DNA of 24,000 bases from Dehalococcoidia bacterium (GCA_014874385.1 JACWAE010000035.1:1-24000), one strand, 5' to 3'; counted from the stretch's first letter, positions 3,372 through 12,355 are shown. Notes: generated by a model not told the origin, from the sequence alone. Made by a program: numbers and translations.

Positions 3372-4994
3372 ATGACCAAACTGACTTTCTACGGCGGCAT
3401 AAACGAGATAGGCGGGAACAAAGTGCTCCTAGAGGACGGAGACCGCGGGCTATTCCTGGATTTCGGCTTCCCCTACAAAAGGCACAAGCAGTTCTACGAG
3501 GAGTACCTGAATCCCCGCAGCGGCGCAGGGCTGCTCGACCCTCTAACTATGGGTCTGCTGCCTCCTCTGGCAGGCCTTTATCGCGATGACCTGGTGGCTC
3601 CGAGCCTCTGGGAGCAGTTCCGCGATAACCCCCTTTACCGTGAGCTTAAAAGGGTAGACGGAGTGCTGCTCACACATGCCCACCTGGACCATTCGGGCTA
3701 TATCTCCTTTCTCAGGGCGGACATACCTATATATTCAACAGGGGTTACCGCCTTTATTGCCAAGGCGATGCAGGACTCGGGCAAGTCGGGCTTTGAGCAG
3801 CAGGTTTGCTACTACAGTCCCACTGTTCGGGACTGTCCTGCCGACTGGAAGCAGACAGCCTTTCTGTCCGAAAATGCGGCAAAGCAGCAGCGGCAATTCT
3901 GCATCTCGGATGTGAGCCCCGGGGCTCTGAGTGCAGATGCGGCGCGATTCTGGGAGAGTGGATTCTGGGGAAAAACCAGCAAACAAAAAGAGCTTATCTC
4001 GTGTCAGCTTGCGGTTCACAGCGGCTGCAGCTTCAATCTGCGCTGCTTCCCGGTTGATCACTCCATACCCGGCGCTTGCGCCTGGGGCATTGAGACCAGC
4101 TCGGGCTGGGTCATCTACACCGGAGACCTGCGACTTCACGGCAAACGCTCTGAGCTTACCGTAAGGTTTGTCGAAGAAGCATCCAAATTACATCCCAGAG
4201 CACTGATACTTGAGGGCACCAATGTACGCCGCCAGTCCAATGTCACCGAGCACGAGGTATACGAGAACGCGCTGAAGGCTATCGCAAAGTCTGAGGGCCT
4301 TGTTATTGCCGATTTCTCGCCCCGGGACGTGGACCGCATGCTCACCTTCCTGCAAATAGCCAGGGATGCCGGAAGGAAGCTGGCGATATTGCCCAAGGAC
4401 GCCTATCTTCTGAAAACCATGCGCCTTCTGGAGAGGGAGACTCCCGACATTGCTCAGGATGATAACCTTGTAATTTACCAGGACACCATCGCCGGTAGAT
4501 ATCCTGCCTTTTGGATTCGAAATATATGTAAGGAATACGATAGCAAGATTGTGCTGGCCAAGGATATAAGCTCGGCGCAGGACAAATTCATCCTTTGTTT
4601 CAGCTTCCTGGACATAAACGAGCTGCCGAGCATCCGCCCCAGGCCGGGCAGCCTCTATCTATTCAGCTCCAGCGAGCCTCACGATGAGGAGCAGGAGATA
4701 GACTTCCGCCGCCTGCGCAACTGGCTGGAGCACTTCGGGCTCAAGAGCTTCGGGCTTCCTGTGGAGATAAAAAAAGAAAATGGGAAGAGCGACTGGGATA
4801 TATCTGATGAAGAAAGAGGGCTGCATGCCTCAGGCCATGCCTGCGGCCCCGACCTGCTCAAAATCGCCCGCGAGATAAAGCCCGAGATGCTCATTCCTAT
4901 CCACAGCGAGAACTCTTATTTCTACGTCGAGAAACTGAATGGCAGCGGGATCGAAGTGAGACTGCCGGAGGCTGGTGGGGTGGTGGGAGTGTGA
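3372..4994 (+). CDS. MBL-fold beta-CASP-type hydrolase, RNase J-like
   Basis: 540 aa. The N-terminus reads LTFYGGINEIGGNKVLLEDGDRGLFLDFG, and the metallo-beta-lactamase motif LLTHAHLDHSGY is present. Later motifs include FPVDHSIPGA, YTGDLRLHG and a C-terminal HASGHA. An SD-like sequence lies upstream. Confidence 0.65.
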   Translation: MTKLTFYGGINEIGGNKVLLEDGDRGLFLDFGFPYKRHKQFYEEYLNPRSGAGLLDPLTMGLLPPLAGLYRDDLVAPSLWEQFRDNPLYRELKRVDGVLLTHAHLDHSGYISFLRADIPIYSTGVTAFIAKAMQDSGKSGFEQQVCYYSPTVRDCPADWKQTAFLSENAAKQQRQFCISDVSPGALSADAARFWESGFWGKTSKQKELISCQLAVHSGCSFNLRCFPVDHSIPGACAWGIETSSGWVIYTGDLRLHGKRSELTVRFVEEASKLHPRALILEGTNVRRQSNVTEHEVYENALKAIAKSEGLVIADFSPRDVDRMLTFLQIARDAGRKLAILPKDAYLLKTMRLLERETPDIAQDDNLVIYQDTIAGRYPAFWIRNICKEYDSKIVLAKDISSAQDKFILCFSFLDINELPSIRPRPGSLYLFSSSEPHDEEQEIDFRRLRNWLEHFGLKSFGLPVEIKKENGKSDWDISDEERGLHASGHACGPDLLKIAREIKPEMLIPIHSENSYFYVEKLNGSGIEVRLPEAGGVVGV

Positions 4995-5130
4995 GATTGT
5001 TTTAACGCAGCACGGCGTATCATTCACAACTTAGAGAGTTTTGTTGCCATACTATTTTCGAGGAAATGGGAAGAATCCAGGCAAAGGAAGGGCGAACCCC
5101 GGCCTTCAATAAACTAAACTTACATGAAAC

Positions 5131-5169
5131 AAAAAAATGGGAGCTGGCGGATAACATCTGTCAGCTCCC
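5131..5169 (-). terminator. Rho-independent terminator of the 5203-5652 gene
   Basis: The stem GGGAGCTG (5139-5146) pairs with CAGCTCCC (5162-5169). On the reverse strand it is followed by A+T7 (plus-strand A-run at 5131-5137). Confidence 0.7.
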
Positions 5170-5202
5170 AATACACCTGTAACGATGTCTAACATGCCTT
5201 AG

Positions 5203-5652
5203 CTAAACGGGGCATGGCACTAATTGTAAGCCCTGACACTGAGCAGCTAAATCAGCGGGTATGGTCTGTTGTGTCACACTGACGGCCGCCTGACGCTGCG
5301 GCTCCACAATAACCTGCTCTCTAGCTCCAACAGGGACTTCCTGTGGCCTGAGCGCCGGCACCTGAGTCCTCGAAGCCAGCCGGTTAGCAACATAAGTCAA
5401 AGCTGCGACTAGGCCAACCACTCCAATCGCTATGCCTAAGCCTTCCAGCGTTCCCAAAACCGGTACACTGACATTCACACTTGAAAATGCACCTGCCAAT
5501 GCTGCTATAGCAAGGGCGGGAAGTGCAAGTACAGCCAGTACAACTATTGCCGGAGCTGCAAGCACCGCTAACGCACCGACGACTGGAACAGCGAGCAGCG
5601 CTATCAAACCCAATATAGGCAAGGCCAGTAACAATGCAAGTAAGAGTATCAT
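5203..5652 (-). CDS. Hydrophobic Ala/Leu/Val/Pro-rich membrane protein, unknown function
   Basis: 149 aa. A strong SD (GGAGGTGAAGAATG) precedes the start. About 95 hydrophobic N-terminal residues include four 11-residue Pro-phased repeats, followed by a polar tail ending CQGLQLVPCPV. A canonical terminator lies downstream. Confidence 0.6.
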   Translation of the reverse strand: MILLLALLLALPILGLIALLAVPVVGALAVLAAPAIVVLAVLALPALAIAALAGAFSSVNVSVPVLGTLEGLGIAIGVVGLVAALTYVANRLASRTQVPALRPQEVPVGAREQVIVEPQRQAAVSVTQQTIPADLAAQCQGLQLVPCPV

Positions 5653-5778
5653 TCTTCACCTCCTTTTCTTTATCATGGCATTATGAACCCGTTATTTCTG
5701 GTTGTATGCGACTTTTGTCTCAAATGAAAATACGTATTCGTCGGTTGGGCCTGGCAGAGGAATGATATTAGCTTTAGC

Positions 5779-5807
5779 TTGTTCTACGCGTCATGGTGTA
5801 ATATAAT
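5779..5807 (+). promoter_or_regulatory. Putative sigma70 promoter upstream of the ABC-2 operon
   Basis: TTGTTC (5779-5784), a 17-nt spacer, then TATAAT (5802-5807). A second candidate, TTGTAA-15-TATAAT, is at 5818-5844. Confidence 0.4.
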
Positions 5808-5949
5808 TGCCCCGATTTTGTAAAGAGGTGTCCGAGGTTATAATAAACGGAGGCAAAGAGGCAAACGCTGAGAAACAGGCGGGAATTGGAACTCGAAAAA
5901 CGGGGAAAGGGGATGGGCAGCAGGTGCATCTTCGTTTTAAAGGTATACT

Positions 5950-6882
5950 ATGACCGAGATAGCGATTCGCACTGAGAACCTGACACGGGATTTCAGTACG
6001 GTGAGGGCTGTGGACGGCCTCTCGATGGAAGTTCCCAGCGGGATCATCTTCGGCTTCCTGGGGCCTAATGCCTCGGGGAAGACCACTACAATCAACCTGC
6101 TGCTGGGACTGCTGGAGCCAACTGTGGGAAAGGCGGAGGTGCTGGGCTTCGATACCCGGACGCAGGCTGACGCAGTCCGTTCCCACTCGGGAGCGCTGCT
6201 GGAACACCCGGGCCTCTACGAGCAGATGAGCGCCGAGGAGAACCTGGAGTTCTATGGACGGGTCTGGCGCTTGCCCTCTGCCGAAAGGCAGGCTCGCATT
6301 AAGGAACTGCTCACCCACTTCGGGCTGTGGGAACGGAGAAGAGAGGCTGTGGACAAGTGGAGCCGGGGCATGAAGCAGAAGCTGGCTATGGCCCGGGCAC
6401 TGCTACATCGGCCATCCCTGGTTTTTCTCGATGAACCCACAGCGGGGCTCGATGTGGTGGCTGCGGCCTCGCTGCGCGATGACCTGGCCGGATTGGCGGC
6501 TCGCGAGGGCGTGACTGTCTTCCTGACCACGCATAACATGTCGGAAGCGGAGAAATTGTGCCGTCTGGTGGCTGTCATTCGAAAAGGCAAGCTGCTGGCT
6601 GTGGGGCATCCGGATGAGTTGAGGGCACATACCGGTAGTCCTCATGTCGAGGTTCTGGGCAGCGGATTCAATGAGAGTGTGCTGAATCTGCTGCGGGCTC
6701 GTCCCGAGGTCTCGGCTGTGGAGGTGCAGGACAAGCGGTTATCAATCCAATTGCGCCAGGAGATGGACGTTGCGCCGCTGGTCGGCCTGATGGTGGGCGC
6801 CGGCGTTCAGGTAGAGGAGGTGCGTAAAGGAAAAGCCAGCCTGGAAGAGGTGTTCCTGACGTTGATGGAGGAAGAGCGATGA
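5950..6882 (+). CDS. ABC transporter ATP-binding protein (ABC-2/DrrA-like)
   Basis: Walker A is GPNASGKTT, the signature-like motif is WSRGMKQKLAMARAL, and Walker B is LVFLDEPTAGLD. The H-loop is TTHNM. A C-terminal accessory domain is present. Confidence 0.9.
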   Translation: MTEIAIRTENLTRDFSTVRAVDGLSMEVPSGIIFGFLGPNASGKTTTINLLLGLLEPTVGKAEVLGFDTRTQADAVRSHSGALLEHPGLYEQMSAEENLEFYGRVWRLPSAERQARIKELLTHFGLWERRREAVDKWSRGMKQKLAMARALLHRPSLVFLDEPTAGLDVVAAASLRDDLAGLAAREGVTVFLTTHNMSEAEKLCRLVAVIRKGKLLAVGHPDELRAHTGSPHVEVLGSGFNESVLNLLRARPEVSAVEVQDKRLSIQLRQEMDVAPLVGLMVGAGVQVEEVRKGKASLEEVFLTLMEEER

Positions 6883-7601
6883 TCGGCGACATGCTGACTG
6901 TGATGTGGAAAGAACGGAAAAGCTTGTTCCGCCATAGGGGCAGCAGGTTGAGAGCCGTGTTCAATCTGCTGATACCTGTCGGTCTAGTGGCTGTCTATTT
7001 CCCTTTGGGCGAGGGACGTAACTGGGTGAGCAGCCCTGTAGCTCTTTTCGCTCTTATTATACCCATGCTGCTGGTGGGCACGACGGTTCCTGATGCCTTT
7101 GCCGGGGAGCGAGAGCGGCATACGCTGAGTACGCTGCTGGCGAGCCGCCTGCCGGATCGGGCTGTCCTGTTCGGCAAAATCGCTGTGGCGGTGGCCTACG
7201 GATGGATAGTGACGCTCATAGCTATACTGTTGGGGTTGGTGACAGTAAACGCAGCGCATTGGCAGGGGCATGTGTTGCTCTACTCACCTGCTATAGCCGT
7301 AGCAGACATAGTGTTAAGCTTTCTGGTGGCAACGTTTGTTACAGGCGCTGGAATACTGATTTCACTGCGGGCTGCCTCGGTGCAGGAGGCCCAGCAGCTT
7401 CTGGTGACTATTATGTTGATTCCCCCCATAGTTCTGGCAGTGATATTGACTGCCTTTCATAAGCAGGTAGCAAGTGCTCTTGGGGGAGTCAGCTTCTTGG
7501 AGGCCGTTCTCATAGCGATGGGTGTTCTCATTGTAGCGGATGCACTCTTGCTTATGGTAACTATGGCGCGTTTTCAGAGGGCGCGGCTGATTCTGGGTTG
7601 A
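6879..7601 (+). CDS. ABC-2 type transporter permease
   Basis: 240 aa with about 6 predicted TM segments. Its start overlaps the ATPase stop (ATGA at 6879-6882). Confidence 0.75.
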   Translation: MIGDMLTVMWKERKSLFRHRGSRLRAVFNLLIPVGLVAVYFPLGEGRNWVSSPVALFALIIPMLLVGTTVPDAFAGERERHTLSTLLASRLPDRAVLFGKIAVAVAYGWIVTLIAILLGLVTVNAAHWQGHVLLYSPAIAVADIVLSFLVATFVTGAGILISLRAASVQEAQQLLVTIMLIPPIVLAVILTAFHKQVASALGGVSFLEAVLIAMGVLIVADALLLMVTMARFQRARLILG

Positions 7602-7639
7602 GATAGAGGATGGAATCGAGTTTTTGGTCTGCTGGACAA

Positions 7640-7663
7640 GGGCACAGCGCGCTGTGCCCCTAC
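7640..7663. repeat. GTAG...CTAC hairpin repeat (GGGCACAGCGCGCTGTGCCC core, left arm degenerate); probable terminator
   Basis: A 20-nt perfect palindrome at 7640-7659 is followed by CTAC and a T-rich tract, 39 nt after the permease stop. Its core is identical to the copy at 18837-18864. Confidence 0.6.
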
Positions 7664-7710
7664 TTTCTTAGCAGTAATATAATGCAGGCATGGTGTAACG
7701 GAGGTCAGGA

Positions 7711-8136
7711 ATGCTGAGCTGGGAGAAGAAGCTGGCTGGTATCGATGTCAATCAAAGCGAGTTCCCCATGTGCTTTGCCTGCGGCAAGGATAACCCTGTC
7801 GGGCTCAAGCTCAAGATTGTGAAGAACGGCGACGAGGCCAGGGGCGAGTTCGTCATCAGCGAGTTCTACCAGGGGTGGCGTGGGTATGTCCACGGCGGCA
7901 TCATCTTCACGATCCTCGACGAGGCCATGGCTTACGCATATTTTCCGGAGATAAAAGGTGTTACCGCCAAGACCGAGGTCAGGATAAGGCAGCCTGTACC
8001 GATTGGAGTCCCGCTGGTGGTCACGGGAAGGGTGGTCAAGAAGACGAGGAAGCTTTTCACCACGGCCGCTGAGATAACGCTTGAGGATGGCACAGTCCTG
8101 GCTGAGAGCACGGCCCAGGTGTATGTTGTGAACTGA
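7711..8136 (+). CDS. PaaI/4HBT-family hotdog-fold thioesterase
   Basis: 141 aa. The motifs CFACGKDNPVGLKLK and GYVHGGIIFTILDEAMAYA are typical of PaaI-type thioesterases. SD GGAGG lies upstream. Confidence 0.75.
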   Translation: MLSWEKKLAGIDVNQSEFPMCFACGKDNPVGLKLKIVKNGDEARGEFVISEFYQGWRGYVHGGIIFTILDEAMAYAYFPEIKGVTAKTEVRIRQPVPIGVPLVVTGRVVKKTRKLFTTAAEITLEDGTVLAESTAQVYVVN

Positions 8137-8162
8137 AATGATGTATGCTTCCAGGGTAGCCT

Positions 8163-8194
8163 GTATGAGGGCGGGTTTGAAACCCGCCCTCTAC
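8163..8194. repeat. GTAG...CTAC hairpin repeat, GGGTTTnAAACCC subtype; probable terminator
   Basis: The sequence is GTAtGAGGGCGGGTTTgAAACCCGCCCTCTAC, 27 nt after the thioesterase stop. The arms form a 12-bp perfect stem. Confidence 0.6.
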
Positions 8195-8286
8195 TATTAT
8201 CTATAGTTGACCTATTGACAAAACTATGCAAATCGTATAGAAAGGTCGTATCTTAAATTACCTGAAAAAGTTGGTAGTGGGGAGGT

Positions 8287-9060
8287 ATGATGGTTAGTGA
8301 GGCGATGAGTCAGGCAGGAGCTGTAACTCCGGTACAGCAAAGCAGGTTGAGGCGAACCAATATCTCGCTGGGTTTCCTCCATCTGGCGCAGGGCATTGTC
8401 ATATTTATACTGGGCTCCGGTTTCAGCGCGCTGGTTACTGCATCGTATATAGGCTCAAGTGTGGAATACAGGTATGAGCCGCGGATATTGCTTGCGGTAT
8501 TTCTGTTCATCTCGGCGTTCTGTCACCTGCTGGTTTCGCTGCCGAAGGTATTTCCCTGGTATATCAGGAACCTGGGCAGGCATATCAACTACGTGCGCTG
8601 GTATGAGTATTCGCTTAGCGCATCGGTGATGATTGTGGTGATAGCCTCACTGTGCGGGATCACCGATTTGGTGAGCTTGCTGGGCTTGTTTGTTCTCACC
8701 GCAGGTATGAACCTGTTTGGTCTTATGATGGAGCTGCATAATCAGTCTACTGAAAAGACTAATTGGACGGCATTTGTCTTTGGGAGCATTGTTGGGGTCG
8801 TGCCCTGGGCTGTTATACTACTCTATTTCGTAAAGGCTACACCTGCACCGCCCATGTTTGTGTATGCCGTAGTTGCCTCTCTAATGTTCTTCTATGCACT
8901 GTTTCCACTGAATATGTGGCTGCAGTATGCCCGAAAAGGCCGCTGGAGAAACTATGTCTGGGGTGAGTACGGGTATATGTTCCTCAGCCTGACCGCTAAG
9001 TCGCTGCTGGCATGGCAGGTGTTCGCGGGTACGTTAAACGCTGCCTCATGGCTGCAATAA
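8287..9060 (+). CDS. Heliorhodopsin
   Basis: 257 aa with 7 TM segments. The motifs RWYEYSLSASVMIVVIASLCGITDLVSLLGLF (Glu107) and GEYGYMFLSLTAKSLLAWQVFAGTL (Lys238) closely match the heliorhodopsin 48C12 sequence as I recall it (RWVEYSLSSSVMIV..., SLVAKSALAWQIFSGTL). SD GGGGAGG lies just upstream, and the ATG at 8290 is an alternative start. Confidence 0.85.
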   Translation: MMVSEAMSQAGAVTPVQQSRLRRTNISLGFLHLAQGIVIFILGSGFSALVTASYIGSSVEYRYEPRILLAVFLFISAFCHLLVSLPKVFPWYIRNLGRHINYVRWYEYSLSASVMIVVIASLCGITDLVSLLGLFVLTAGMNLFGLMMELHNQSTEKTNWTAFVFGSIVGVVPWAVILLYFVKATPAPPMFVYAVVASLMFFYALFPLNMWLQYARKGRWRNYVWGEYGYMFLSLTAKSLLAWQVFAGTLNAASWLQ

Positions 9061-9220
9061 ACTGGATGGAGATGTGCAGCTTCTTGTGTACATATTAGAG
9101 CAAGTTTTTTAACTGTCCAGGAGACCCCGAGAATCGTGTCTTCTAACTTGGATGAGTGACATGTTAACGCCGATCTATGGCTCCTGATGTCACTGCTACA
9201 ACCGCCTGAGACGAATTCAA

Positions 9221-10057
9221 ATGAATGTTAAAGTAGTAACAGACAGCACCTCTGACCTGCCTGGCGCGGTAGTTCGCGAGCTAGGTATCACCGTGGTGCC
9301 GGCGCTGGTTCAGTTCGGAGATAAGGTGTACCATGACGGAGTAGACCTCTCCACTGACGAATTCTATCGTCAGCTGAGGACTAATCCAGTACTGCCCAGA
9401 ACCTCAGCGCCCTCCCCGGGCACCTTCAGAGACGTCTACAGCCGCCTTGCTCAGGAAGCTGAGGCTATTGTCTCCATCCACGTTTCAGCTAAGATGAGCG
9501 CCACTTACGATGCTGCGCGATTGGGTTCTGTAGACTTTAAATGCCCCATCTCAATAATCGACTCGCAAACAGCATCAATGGCCTGTGGACTGCTCGTCAT
9601 CCTCGCTGCCAACGCAGCCAGGGAGGGAGCATCTTTTTCAGATATGGAGGCGCTGGTACGCGCTGCCATTCCCCGTACTGTCACATTCGGAGTGTTCGGT
9701 ACATTGGAGTATCTTTACAAAGGCGGGCGTATCGGCAGGGCGCAGGTTTTCTTGGGCAGCATTCTCAAGCTGAATCCCATCCTGGCGATACGGGCCGGCG
9801 AGATCTTGCCCATCGCGAGAATACGTACCCGCTCCAAAGCTATAGAGCGTTTATGTGAAATATTACGAGATTCGGGCGTGCCTCAGGACATGTCAGTGAT
9901 GAGCACCACAGAACCTGAGGAAGCGGAGGCCCTGGCCCAACGCCTGTCCACTCTGTTTCCCCAGGAGCGAATGTATCGCGCCAGCATCGGCCCAGCCATG
10001 GGGACCTATGTGGGACCGGGTGCCGTCGGGGTTTCAGTAATCTGGAAAGAGAAATAA
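9221..10057 (+). CDS. DegV family fatty-acid-binding protein
   Basis: The N-terminus VKVVTDSTSDLP is typical of the family. The 278-aa length and the motifs GTLEYLYKGGRIG and GPGAVGV are also characteristic. Confidence 0.85.
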   Translation: MNVKVVTDSTSDLPGAVVRELGITVVPALVQFGDKVYHDGVDLSTDEFYRQLRTNPVLPRTSAPSPGTFRDVYSRLAQEAEAIVSIHVSAKMSATYDAARLGSVDFKCPISIIDSQTASMACGLLVILAANAAREGASFSDMEALVRAAIPRTVTFGVFGTLEYLYKGGRIGRAQVFLGSILKLNPILAIRAGEILPIARIRTRSKAIERLCEILRDSGVPQDMSVMSTTEPEEAEALAQRLSTLFPQERMYRASIGPAMGTYVGPGAVGVSVIWKEK

Positions 10058-10072
10058 CCAGGGAGGTCTTCG

Positions 10073-10612
10073 GTGCACACCCAGCAGCTAACGCTCGGTT
10101 TGGTCAATGTAGTAGGCGGTATCCTGGTTCTGGGGAGCTACGCTCACGGGCTTATCACGCACCCTGCTAATCGTGATGCTATTTGGGGCGATGTGCCCGA
10201 GGCCATCAAGCCGCTATATACAGCGAACATGTTGCTTGCAGCGGCAGGCTATTTGGCTTTCACATATTTCGTCCTGTTCCGTTTGCATCCAGACAGTGCG
10301 CAGCTGGCAAGCCTTTCAGGCTACAAGGTATTCTATATAATTTACGCCCTGATACTCTTACCTTCTGCACTGTGGATGCCCCTTACCTACGCTTCACTGG
10401 GACACCCGGATAGCAGCCTATATTATTGGGCAATCCGCATCACGTTAGCAGTCGTGGGGCTGGCGTCATTGGGGCTGCTAGGCGTGTTGCTATCGTTGCA
10501 TTCCAGCGAATCATCACCCACATACTGGCTGGCAGTCGCCGGTTGTGTCTTCTTCTGTATTCAGACGGCCGTGCTCGATGCCATAGTCTGGCCTGCCTTC
10601 TTTCGAGTCTAA
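10073..10612 (+). CDS. Integral membrane protein, unknown family
   Basis: 179 aa with about 5-6 TM segments. It has a GTG start, with SD GGGAGG 7 nt upstream, and begins 15 nt after the degV stop. Confidence 0.6.
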   Translation: MHTQQLTLGLVNVVGGILVLGSYAHGLITHPANRDAIWGDVPEAIKPLYTANMLLAAAGYLAFTYFVLFRLHPDSAQLASLSGYKVFYIIYALILLPSALWMPLTYASLGHPDSSLYYWAIRITLAVVGLASLGLLGVLLSLHSSESSPTYWLAVAGCVFFCIQTAVLDAIVWPAFFRV

Positions 10613-10690
10613 TTGGGTACGCAACTGTTAGTGAGGAAGGGGACTGAATCGGCCTTTGCCTCGAGCAGGTGCTCCAGGCTACTAAGTGGG

Positions 10691-12220
10691 TCAGGCCCAG
10701 TCCCAGACCAGGTGGCCATCTTTTATAGTGTATTTCAGAAGGCCTTTATCGACCCACTTCGTGATATCTTCTTTGACCTGCTGATGTGAATACGGCACAA
10801 GCTCCGCCACTTTGCTTGCCAGAGCTTCTACCGGATTGCCTTCCGGTTTCATCGTGGCCAGGTTTTCGATTACATCGCCCTTCAGTATAGCTATCGATAG
10901 CGGGCTGCGTCTCTTCTCTTTAGCGGATTCTCCCTGAGATGCTCCGCTCTCTTTTTCCAGTTGGGCTAGGTATTTATTTAGTGCCTCGAAGTATTGCTGG
11001 AGGAAAGCGTTTATCTCCTCTGGTCCAGCATCTTTGGTACGCGTTAGTGGCCTGTTACAGTCGTACTTTGTCCAATCGTTCGTCAATATCTCTATCCCGT
11101 ATTCTGCTGCTTTCTCGCGCACCTCGGTCCCGGGGAAGGGTGACAGTACATTGAATCCGTAGGATGCACCAAGCCCCTGGGCGAACTGCATGGTCTGTTT
11201 CAGAGTTTCCGCGGTCTCGCCAGGCAAGCCTACAATGAATGATGCCAGAATGCCGATGCCTGCCTCCTTTGCCATTTTCACAGCATCCCGGACCTTCTCC
11301 AGGGTGATTTTCTTCTTGATAGTATCCAGAATCTCTTGATTCCCGCTCTCCACGCCGTACAGGAGCCAGGCGCATCCTGCCTGTTTCATCTTGCTGAGTA
11401 TCTCCAAATTCACGGTGTCTACCCTGGAAAAGGCGCTCCAGTTGAATTTCAAACCTCTGGCTATTATCTCATCGCAGAGGGCGTTGAGGTGCTGGTGATT
11501 GAGCGTGAGGTGATCGTCCTCGAAATTTATCTCTCTGAAGCCGGATGACACGGCTTGCTCTACTTCGTCGATTATGAGCTTGGGGTTGCGGTATCTGACT
11601 CTCCGGCCTCCCATCTTGGAGCCGACGCAGAAGATGCAGTTGAAAGGGCAACCTCTGCCGGTGAGGATGCTGGCATGTACGTCGAGGGCAAGATATCGCG
11701 ACAGAGGGAAGAGGTGTTTCGCAGGGGGGGGGAGTTCGTCAAGGTTCTCGATCAAATGGCGCTCCCCGGTCATTTTTATGCCATTGGCTTTATCTCTATA
11801 GGCGATCCCGTCTATATCGGCGAGCTTTTTGCCGCTCACGATATCCAGCATGGTTCTCTCGCCTTCTCCCCTGACCACAATGTCTATCCAGGGGGCTTCG
11901 GTAAGTGTTTCCACAGGGGCAAAGGTGACATGGGGACCGCCGATAATGGTGATAATATCCTTATCCACAGACCTGGTGTACTTGAGTATGTCGGAGGCGA
12001 TGGGGTAATTCAGCGTTACCGACGTTACGCCTACAATATCGGGCTGGTACTCTTCGAGCTTTTTCTTTATCTTCTCCTTGGAGTATCTTGATACCAGAAG
12101 GTCGAGGACCCGCACTTCATGGCCGCTATGTTCTAATACGCCAGCCAGATACGACAGCCCCATCGGCAGGATGGGAATCTCCGAAAATGGATATGGGGGG
12201 TTTACCAGCAGTGTTCTCAT
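10691..12220 (-). CDS. B12-binding-domain radical SAM protein with an extra C-terminal domain
   Basis: The N-terminus is a cobalamin-binding-type domain (MRTLLVNPPYPFSEIPILPMGLSYLAGVLEHSGHEVRVLDL). The radical SAM cluster motif is GRGCPFNCIFC (CX3CX2C). A tail of roughly 100 aa follows the core. The ATG at 12220 (SD GAGGA) is preferred, because the TTG at 12250 falls at the predicted transcription start. Confidence 0.8.
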   Translation of the reverse strand: MRTLLVNPPYPFSEIPILPMGLSYLAGVLEHSGHEVRVLDLLVSRYSKEKIKKKLEEYQPDIVGVTSVTLNYPIASDILKYTRSVDKDIITIIGGPHVTFAPVETLTEAPWIDIVVRGEGERTMLDIVSGKKLADIDGIAYRDKANGIKMTGERHLIENLDELPPPAKHLFPLSRYLALDVHASILTGRGCPFNCIFCVGSKMGGRRVRYRNPKLIIDEVEQAVSSGFREINFEDDHLTLNHQHLNALCDEIIARGLKFNWSAFSRVDTVNLEILSKMKQAGCAWLLYGVESGNQEILDTIKKKITLEKVRDAVKMAKEAGIGILASFIVGLPGETAETLKQTMQFAQGLGASYGFNVLSPFPGTEVREKAAEYGIEILTNDWTKYDCNRPLTRTKDAGPEEINAFLQQYFEALNKYLAQLEKESGASQGESAKEKRRSPLSIAILKGDVIENLATMKPEGNPVEALASKVAELVPYSHQQVKEDITKWVDKGLLKYTIKDGHLVWDWA

Positions 12221-12258
12221 ATTGTCCTCAGTCGAAGTTACTTTGCCCAATAGAGTAG

Positions 12259-12287
12259 ATATTAGGGGTCTGTGCTTAGATTGTCAA
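12259..12287 (-). promoter_or_regulatory. Sigma70 promoter of the radical SAM gene
   Basis: On the reverse strand the sequence reads TTGACA, the 17-nt spacer atctaagcacagacccc, then TAATAT. The -35 is at 12287-12282 and the -10 at 12264-12259. Confidence 0.55.
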
Positions 12288-12355
12288 CCTGATAGGGGCT
12301 GATGGCTGAAAGCCGATGCTGTTTGCTTGAGTTTGAATTTGTTCGGGATTCGAGC

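Follow-up and report, generated by a model that had tools for sequence, protein, structure and literature searches.

A heliorhodopsin gene beside a DegV gene and a five-helix membrane protein gene in a Dehalococcoidia bacterium, with a candidate role in light-regulated fatty-acid handling

The heliorhodopsin (HeR) gene described here lies in a stretch of 24,000 nucleotides from a Dehalococcoidia bacterium (GCA_014874385.1, JACWAE010000035.1:1-24000), hereafter called the window, which takes up the first 24 of the 35 kb of a contig in a metagenome-assembled genome (MAG) of 2.8 Mb (118 contigs, 95.2% complete, 6.4% contamination). The coding sequence is an ATG-started open reading frame (ORF) of 257 codons on the + strand at 8287-9060. 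It is followed on the same strand by a gene for a DegV protein (FakB-type fatty-acid-binding protein; 9221-10057, Pfam DegV, 1.1e-75) and by a gene for a 179-residue protein (10073-10612), which has five transmembrane (TM) helices in its AlphaFold2 model and which we designate the 5-TM protein. A preliminary description of this DNA, made from the sequence alone, had placed a 257-residue protein with seven TM helices at 8287-9060 and had given the codons of Glu107 and Lys238 as 8605-8607 and 8998-9000; the ORF, the motifs RWYEYSLS and SLTAKS around these residues and both codon positions proved exact. Two ATG codons stand side by side at 8287 and 8290, with a GGGAGG sequence at 8280-8285. Because the ATGs are adjacent and most close relatives of the protein have 256 residues, the true start may be 8290, in which case the residue numbers used below would decrease by one.

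The protein matches the Pfam model PF18761 over its full length (E = 1.1e-79, 267.6 bits against a cut-off of 26.7, profile positions 1-242 of 242), as it does the NCBIfam equivalog model for HeR, NF038020 (263.3 bits against a cut-off of 100, positions 1-244 of 244). Its best sequence matches in the Protein Data Bank (PDB), found with HMMER, are TaHeR (6is6, 4e-58) and HeR-48C12 (6su3, 6e-47). Modelled by AlphaFold2 with 16 relatives (pLDDT 82.3), the protein has TM helices at residues 15-43, 65-83, 102-122, 128-154, 160-183, 191-214 and 223-249, a short helix in the BC loop (89-97) and two β-strands in the AB loop (50-53 and 60-63, assigned by DSSP). The ten best Foldseek matches of this model are all heliorhodopsins, with TM-scores of 0.79-0.85, and type-1 rhodopsins score at most 0.65. 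Pairwise dN/dS values against four relatives are 0.09-0.17, and the gene is therefore under purifying selection. As judged from the profile matches and the fold, the ORF is a real, intact heliorhodopsin gene, in agreement with the preliminary description.

In the HMMER alignment, Glu107 (codon GAG, 8605-8607, TM3) corresponds to the single counter-ion glutamate of TaHeR (E108, RWFEYSIS) and 48C12 (E107, RWVEYSLS), and Lys238 (codon AAG, 8998-9000, TM7) aligns under the Schiff-base lysine of LSLVAKSALAWQ in both proteins (K238 of TaHeR and K241 of 48C12). The two residues are thus the predicted counter-ion and the predicted retinal Schiff-base lysine, and the earlier alignment to 48C12, which had been made by eye, had picked homologous positions. 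Position 107 is Glu in 14 of the 16 relatives and Asp in the other two, and Glu107 is invariant across all of the DegV- or 5-TM-linked HeRs compared. Lys238 and the retinal-pocket residues are invariant in two of our alignments (A1 and A3). His32 (8380-8382) and His80 (8524-8526; an invariant column in alignment A1) are the counterparts of the conserved histidines in TM1 (H23 of 48C12 and TaHeR) and TM2 (H80/H82), respectively; both are retained in the window HeR, as are Ser234 and Glu149, and some family members, such as the HeR of locus L128 discussed below, lack the histidines. Because the loops carry 12 lysine and arginine residues on the predicted cytoplasmic side against three outside, the predicted topology with a cytoplasmic N-terminus and an external C-terminus is supported, consistent with the inverted topology that had been expected.

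The best solved relative is TaHeR, from the Thermoplasmatales archaeon SG8-52-1 (PDB 6IS6, 7U55 and 7CLJ), with which the window HeR shares 45-46% sequence identity, the counter-ion Glu, the Schiff-base Lys, both conserved histidines and the short BC-loop helix (TM-scores 0.80-0.85). HeR-48C12 (PDB 6SU3, 6SU4 and 6UH3), which belongs to the founding branch A, has the same fold (TM-scores 0.81-0.84), and its E107 and K241 correspond to Glu107 and Lys238; however, it is only 38% identical, with 164 bits compared with 200 bits for TaHeR. Because of this better score against TaHeR, we assign the window HeR to a TaHeR-like type and not to branch A. It differs from TaHeR in its bacterial host and in two structural features. 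Compared with TaHeR, 48C12 and more distant relatives, the window HeR has an AB loop (residues 48-66, 8428-8484) with about 11 fewer residues, which is predicted to form a short β-hairpin; this shortening probably explains why the Pfam score is among the lowest for full-length heliorhodopsins of Chloroflexota. At the lateral fenestration, the Asn residue of TaHeR (N204), 48C12 (N207) and Cv06 (N255) is replaced by Ala204 (8896-8898), and the other fenestration positions are, by alignment, F163, S167, G170, Y203 and P207. Ala204 and the shortened AB-loop hairpin are traits of the subclade to which the window HeR belongs.

HeR, DegV and 5-TM genes occur together in at least five arrangements, with HeRs of 39-50% identity. 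The order HeR-DegV-5TM is found in the window and in L145, L146 and L157, and DUF2177-HeR-DegV-5TM in G069 and G276, two complete genomes (1.8-1.9 Mb) from a single genus that shares its class with the MAG, where the four genes form a row on one strand with gaps of 22-85 nt (G069:C1:355782-358362 and G276:C1:321201-323781). The order is DegV-5TM-HeR in L097 and 5TM-HeR in L096 (5-nt gap) and L180, and convergent or divergent forms occur in L021, G123, L165 and L166 (L021 and G123 being convergent). The carriers of the linked gene set belong to the class of the MAG, and the records behind L021 and L097 are named Dehalococcoidia.

The 5-TM protein has no Pfam match even at E ≤ 10, and none of its 1441 homologues carries a Pfam domain. 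Its AlphaFold2 model (pLDDT 87.8) has no significant fold match in the PDB (best E 0.086, TM-score at most 0.48), so that the fold gives no functional clue. The conserved motifs of the family are SALWMPLT and CxQTAxLDAxVWP. It is present in six of the 401 Chloroflexota genomes sampled, all six in Dehalococcoidia, and five of these six encode a HeR, compared with 54 of the 401 genomes in the whole phylum sample. In 59 of 80 metagenome loci (44 of the 58 with enough upstream flank), the 5-TM gene is immediately preceded by a DegV gene on its own strand, and a HeR gene lies within 2 kb of the DegV-5TM pair in 13 of the 39 loci with enough flank. We considered whether the 179-residue protein is a divergent DUF2177 (PF09945) and rejected this idea, as single operons hold members of both families: in G069, G276 and G123, a genuine DUF2177 gene and a gene for a homologue of the 179-residue protein are both present around one HeR. 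No DUF2177 gene was found in the window MAG (G000).

The MAG encodes eight DegV paralogues. The window DegV falls in a clade with 100/100 support whose members all precede a 5-TM gene, and it is separated in this way from the seven other DegVs of the MAG. A single origin of the 5-TM-linked DegVs is not supported, since the DegV tree places them in two clades. One FakA-like Dak2 domain was found in the MAG, in a 560-residue frame on contig C32, so that DegV and FakA-like proteins occur in the same genome. Because of this FakA-like protein, the DegV proteins of the MAG may plausibly act as FakB-type fatty-acid carriers.

Comparison with sister lineages shows that the HeR of this locus has been exchanged in place. 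In L127, L128 and L141, the flanking genes are close to those of the window (thioesterase 89-94% identical where in view, DegV 82-87%, 5-TM 83-86%), and the HeR in the slot is just 42% identical to the window HeR. The same pattern is found in L144, L150 and L156, whose loci lack the upstream flank in which the thioesterase and the remnant described below would be seen. Because the slot HeR (L128 type) scores higher against 48C12 than against TaHeR, we assign it to branch A; in L128 it has Leu at both conserved histidine positions. Upstream of it, at L128:1946-2035, the first 30 codons of a window-type HeR remain (71% identity), fused to a foreign Cys-rich ORF of 104 residues; the region as a whole is L128:1946-3017. 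Based on the close flanks, the 42%-identical branch-A HeR and the 30-codon remnant, the slot 4HBT-[HeR]-DegV-5TM has been refilled with a different HeR while the neighbours were kept, an in-situ xenologous replacement. The branch-A HeR of L127, L128 and L141, with both histidines replaced by Leu and located before DegV, fits the description of the Dehalococcoidia fosmid HeR HULAa30F3, with which it was compared by description only. Unlike HULAa30F3, the window HeR is TaHeR-like and keeps both histidines. New here are the locus in this TaHeR-like, histidine-containing version and the remnant, which records that a branch-A HeR took over its place in sister lineages.

Upstream of the HeR gene, Pfam matches on the + strand identify an MBL-fold RNase (3372-4994), an ATP-binding cassette (ABC) ATPase (5950-6882), an ABC-2 permease (6879-7601) and a hotdog-fold (4HBT) thioesterase (7711-8136, Pfam 4HBT, 4e-10). 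Downstream of 10612, a B12-binding radical S-adenosylmethionine (SAM) enzyme and then an α/β-hydrolase are encoded on the - strand, also assigned by Pfam. A terminator-like hairpin follows the ABC-2 permease (7640-7659), and a second one, an 11-bp GC-rich hairpin on the + strand found by RNAfold of 8137-8286, follows the thioesterase stop codon (8167-8191). Both hairpins are GC-rich with outer arms of the GTAG...CTAC type. The second hairpin suggests that HeR is transcribed from a promoter of its own. By eye, a TTGACA was noticed at 8215-8220, with a TATAGA after a short spacer; this pair was not called by the promoter scan, which found no convincing sigma-70 site upstream of HeR. The spacer between HeR and DegV is 160 nt long with weak structure, and that between DegV and 5-TM is 15 nt. 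Given the terminator-like hairpins and the 160-nt spacer, the operon structure is left open.

Across relatives, the conserved backbone consists of MBL-RNase ... 4HBT-HeR ... radical SAM-hydrolase-archaellin, with variable inserts. The stretch from the MBL-fold RNase to the radical-SAM gene (5000-12300 in the window) is a variable hot spot in comparison with L010, L090, L092, L145 and L146. A 4HBT gene lies upstream of HeR in L010, L092, L145, L146, L128 and L141. L010, whose HeR is 73% identical to that of the window, has 4HBT only, without the ABC pair and without DegV and 5-TM. L092 (83%) likewise lacks both pairs and has DivIVA, UvdE, PNPOx and 4HBT, and L090 (88%) has PNPOx after HeR, together with an FAD oxidoreductase and a STAS protein. 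The UvdE gene of L092 (L092:3848-4756) lies about 1.2 kb upstream of HeR, with PNPOx and 4HBT between them, and fits a light-stress neighbourhood. The ABC pair is present at the same position in L145 and absent in L010, L092, L090 and L146; in the window, it (5950-7601) is a variable insert and probably a separate unit.

Chloroflexi/Chloroflexota are the source of the named relatives found for the HeR and for its neighbouring genes, as well as of the closest named records, and Chloroflexota are counted as monoderm in the literature, consistent with a monoderm host. The MAG contains one heliorhodopsin. No type-1 rhodopsin (Bac_rhodopsin) was found in it, with a model that rang in no control genome. 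As for chromophore supply, no phytoene synthase (crtB, SQS_PSY; the control rang in 8 of 14 genomes) and no RPE65-type carotenoid oxygenase (the control rang in two genomes) were found in the MAG, and TIGR03753, which rang only weakly, in B. subtilis, gave no match there. The blh gene (Pfam BCD) was found neither in the MAG nor in the 401 Chloroflexota genomes, an absence that is unvalidated, as the model rang in no control genome. The MAG has 24 matches to the Amino_oxidase family (CrtI-like FAD enzymes); a carotenoid pathway based on them was rejected, as there is no phytoene synthase. The preliminary description had reported no crt or blh genes in the window and had left the chromophore source open; none occurs among the larger window ORFs scanned (up to 21562), and the second statement holds across the MAG, with the reservation on blh just given. 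Because crtB, RPE65-type and Blh/BCD matches are all missing from the MAG, de novo retinal synthesis by the host is very unlikely on genomic grounds, and the retinal of the window HeR is probably exogenous. Genomes that have HeR and lack blh are a published pattern (Chazan et al., bioRxiv 10.1101/2021.02.16.431466), and the literature describes an outside supply of retinal as the rule in this family. We also considered a B12-dependent light-switch operon of the CarH/LitR type with HeR. No MerR regulator or B12-binding_2 gene was found in the window, and this candidate was rejected because no B12-binding_2 domain (PF02607) was found in the MAG, with a control that rang in 9 of 14 genomes.

The statement in the preliminary description that heliorhodopsins show no demonstrated ion pumping and have an unsettled role needs updating: among the studies cited in PMC11109279, proton transport is reported only for a viral heliorhodopsin, and regulatory roles are reported for a few bacterial ones, with glutamine synthetase, a photolyase and an ABC exporter as targets. 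A neighbourhood of HeR and DegV (with DUF2177 and DUF1295) and a lipid-remodelling hypothesis have been published by Chazan et al. The window shares with that neighbourhood a DegV gene next to HeR in a genome of the Dehalococcoidia class and the failure to detect blh. It differs in the third partner, which belongs to the unnamed 5-TM family and not to DUF2177 or DUF1295. Reading DegV and the 5-TM protein as partners is thus the published lipid-remodelling idea plus one more partner.

On balance, we consider it fairly probable that the window encodes a functional HeR that acts as a light sensor or regulator with exogenous retinal, and that DegV and the 5-TM protein are its most likely output partners. 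In this scheme, the HeR would bind all-trans retinal at Lys238, with Glu107 as the counter-ion, and its most likely action would be that of a light sensor or regulator with a slow cycle, not that of a pump. The chromophore would probably be taken up from outside, no retinal route having been detected in the host. The DegV/FakB-type protein and the 5-TM membrane protein, by a contact that we infer, would most likely carry the output; light might adjust how free fatty acids pass between the membrane and the fatty-acid kinase (Fak) pathway, and illuminated cells would remodel their membrane lipids as a result. Free fatty acids might be supplied by the hotdog thioesterase encoded upstream. The analysis directly supports the membership in the family, the key residues, the fold, the topology signal, the action of purifying selection and the recurrence of the linkage, and light-regulated fatty-acid handling is our best guess for the function. 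An extension of this scheme, which we regard as rather unlikely, is that HeR, DegV and the 5-TM protein work as a single device through which light controls the exchange of fatty acids between membrane and Fak pathway, with an output surface generic to HeRs; such a surface would explain how histidine-containing TaHeR-like and histidine-less branch-A HeRs can swap in one slot.

Several observations weigh against the favoured scheme. For any HeR-DegV pair, the case for coupling draws on gene linkage. The nearest species-level relatives (L010, L092 and L090) lack DegV and 5-TM next to HeR, tblastn against the 80 HeR loci of other species that are closest to the window found a DegV neighbour in only one, and 26 of the 39 DegV-5TM loci with enough flank have no HeR. 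In the window, HeR follows a terminator-like hairpin and lies 160 nt from DegV, which leaves co-transcription open. The blh model rang in no control genome, so that the absence of blh is not validated. As the region is a variable hot spot, the linkage could be partly incidental.

These points lead to the alternative that survives best, which we hold to be unlikely but not negligible: the HeR would be a genuine photoreceptor with incidental neighbours in a recombination-prone region, and any true partner, for example a kinase, glutamine synthetase or a photolyase-type enzyme, would be encoded elsewhere. In line with such a view, every relative has a different gene content from the MBL-fold RNase to the radical-SAM gene, including the presence or absence of the ABC pair, DegV-5TM loci without HeR occur, and a strong hairpin separates HeR from its upstream gene. 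However, HeR lies beside DegV and/or 5-TM in the independent arrangements described above, the slot stays occupied when one HeR type is exchanged for another in place, and eight DegV genes in about 2.8 Mb put the probability of a chance adjacency below about 1%.

We give little credence to a light-harvesting or ion-moving HeR, in which an exogenous xanthophyll antenna would bind at the fenestration or the protein would be a weak proton transporter like viral HeRs. The smaller Ala204 stands here in place of an Asn residue that, in TaHeR, 48C12 and Cv06, occupies part of the carotenoid groove, and a monoderm host without a detected carotenoid pathway is what the exogenous-antenna hypothesis expects. 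However, the support for a carotenoid antenna comes from docking and modelling reported in a preprint, the characterized bacterial HeRs cited in PMC11109279 are regulators, and nothing in the sequence separates the window HeR from them.

Still less probable is regulation of the ABC-2 exporter encoded two genes upstream, a reading suggested by analogy with OcHeR. OcHeR activates the neighbouring ABC multidrug exporter OmrDE by direct binding, with light-enhanced transport, and HeR-ABC transporter operons are one published class of neighbourhood (PMC11109279). The window HeR likewise has an ABC system nearby, the ATPase and permease genes being on the same strand and 690 nt upstream. However, this transporter is of the ABC-2 type with a separate permease and is not a heterodimeric multidrug-resistance half-transporter pair, and the thioesterase gene and the two terminator-like hairpins stand between it and HeR. 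An ABC exporter within the HeR operon and conserved with HeR, as in the OcHeR-OmrDE system, was not found here. With the pair missing from four relatives (L010, L092, L090 and L146) and the hairpins in between, we rejected the exporter as the main HeR target.

Many Dehalococcoidia inhabit dark anoxic habitats, and no retinal pathway was found in the genome; the HeR might on these grounds have a role independent of retinal and light, structural or lipid-binding, or be a relic in decay, carried by an anaerobe that lives in the dark. Lipids are bound at the fenestration in crystal structures of HeRs according to work cited by Chazan et al., but we consider this the most improbable explanation, because Lys238 and the retinal-pocket residues are invariant, position 107 is Glu or Asp throughout, the reading frame is intact with low dN/dS, and one type of closely related locus seems to correspond to fosmid HULAa30F3, whose HeR was expressed and is pigmented.

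By itself, the window gene is an ordinary HeR, one more in a family of thousands of which about one genome in eight of the phylum carries a member, and the association of HeR with DegV is already published. The locus, by contrast with the gene alone, provides a natural experiment on what bacterial heliorhodopsins do. The recurrent DegV and 5-TM pair, the in-situ swap of the HeR and the presence of a Fak kinase without a detected chromophore pathway point to a lipid-related output, which is testable with three small proteins. Chromophore supply in such organisms would be external or would follow an unrecognized route. If HeR, DegV and the 5-TM protein do form one device, this locus family would provide bacterial heliorhodopsins with their first physiological role that is both general and testable.

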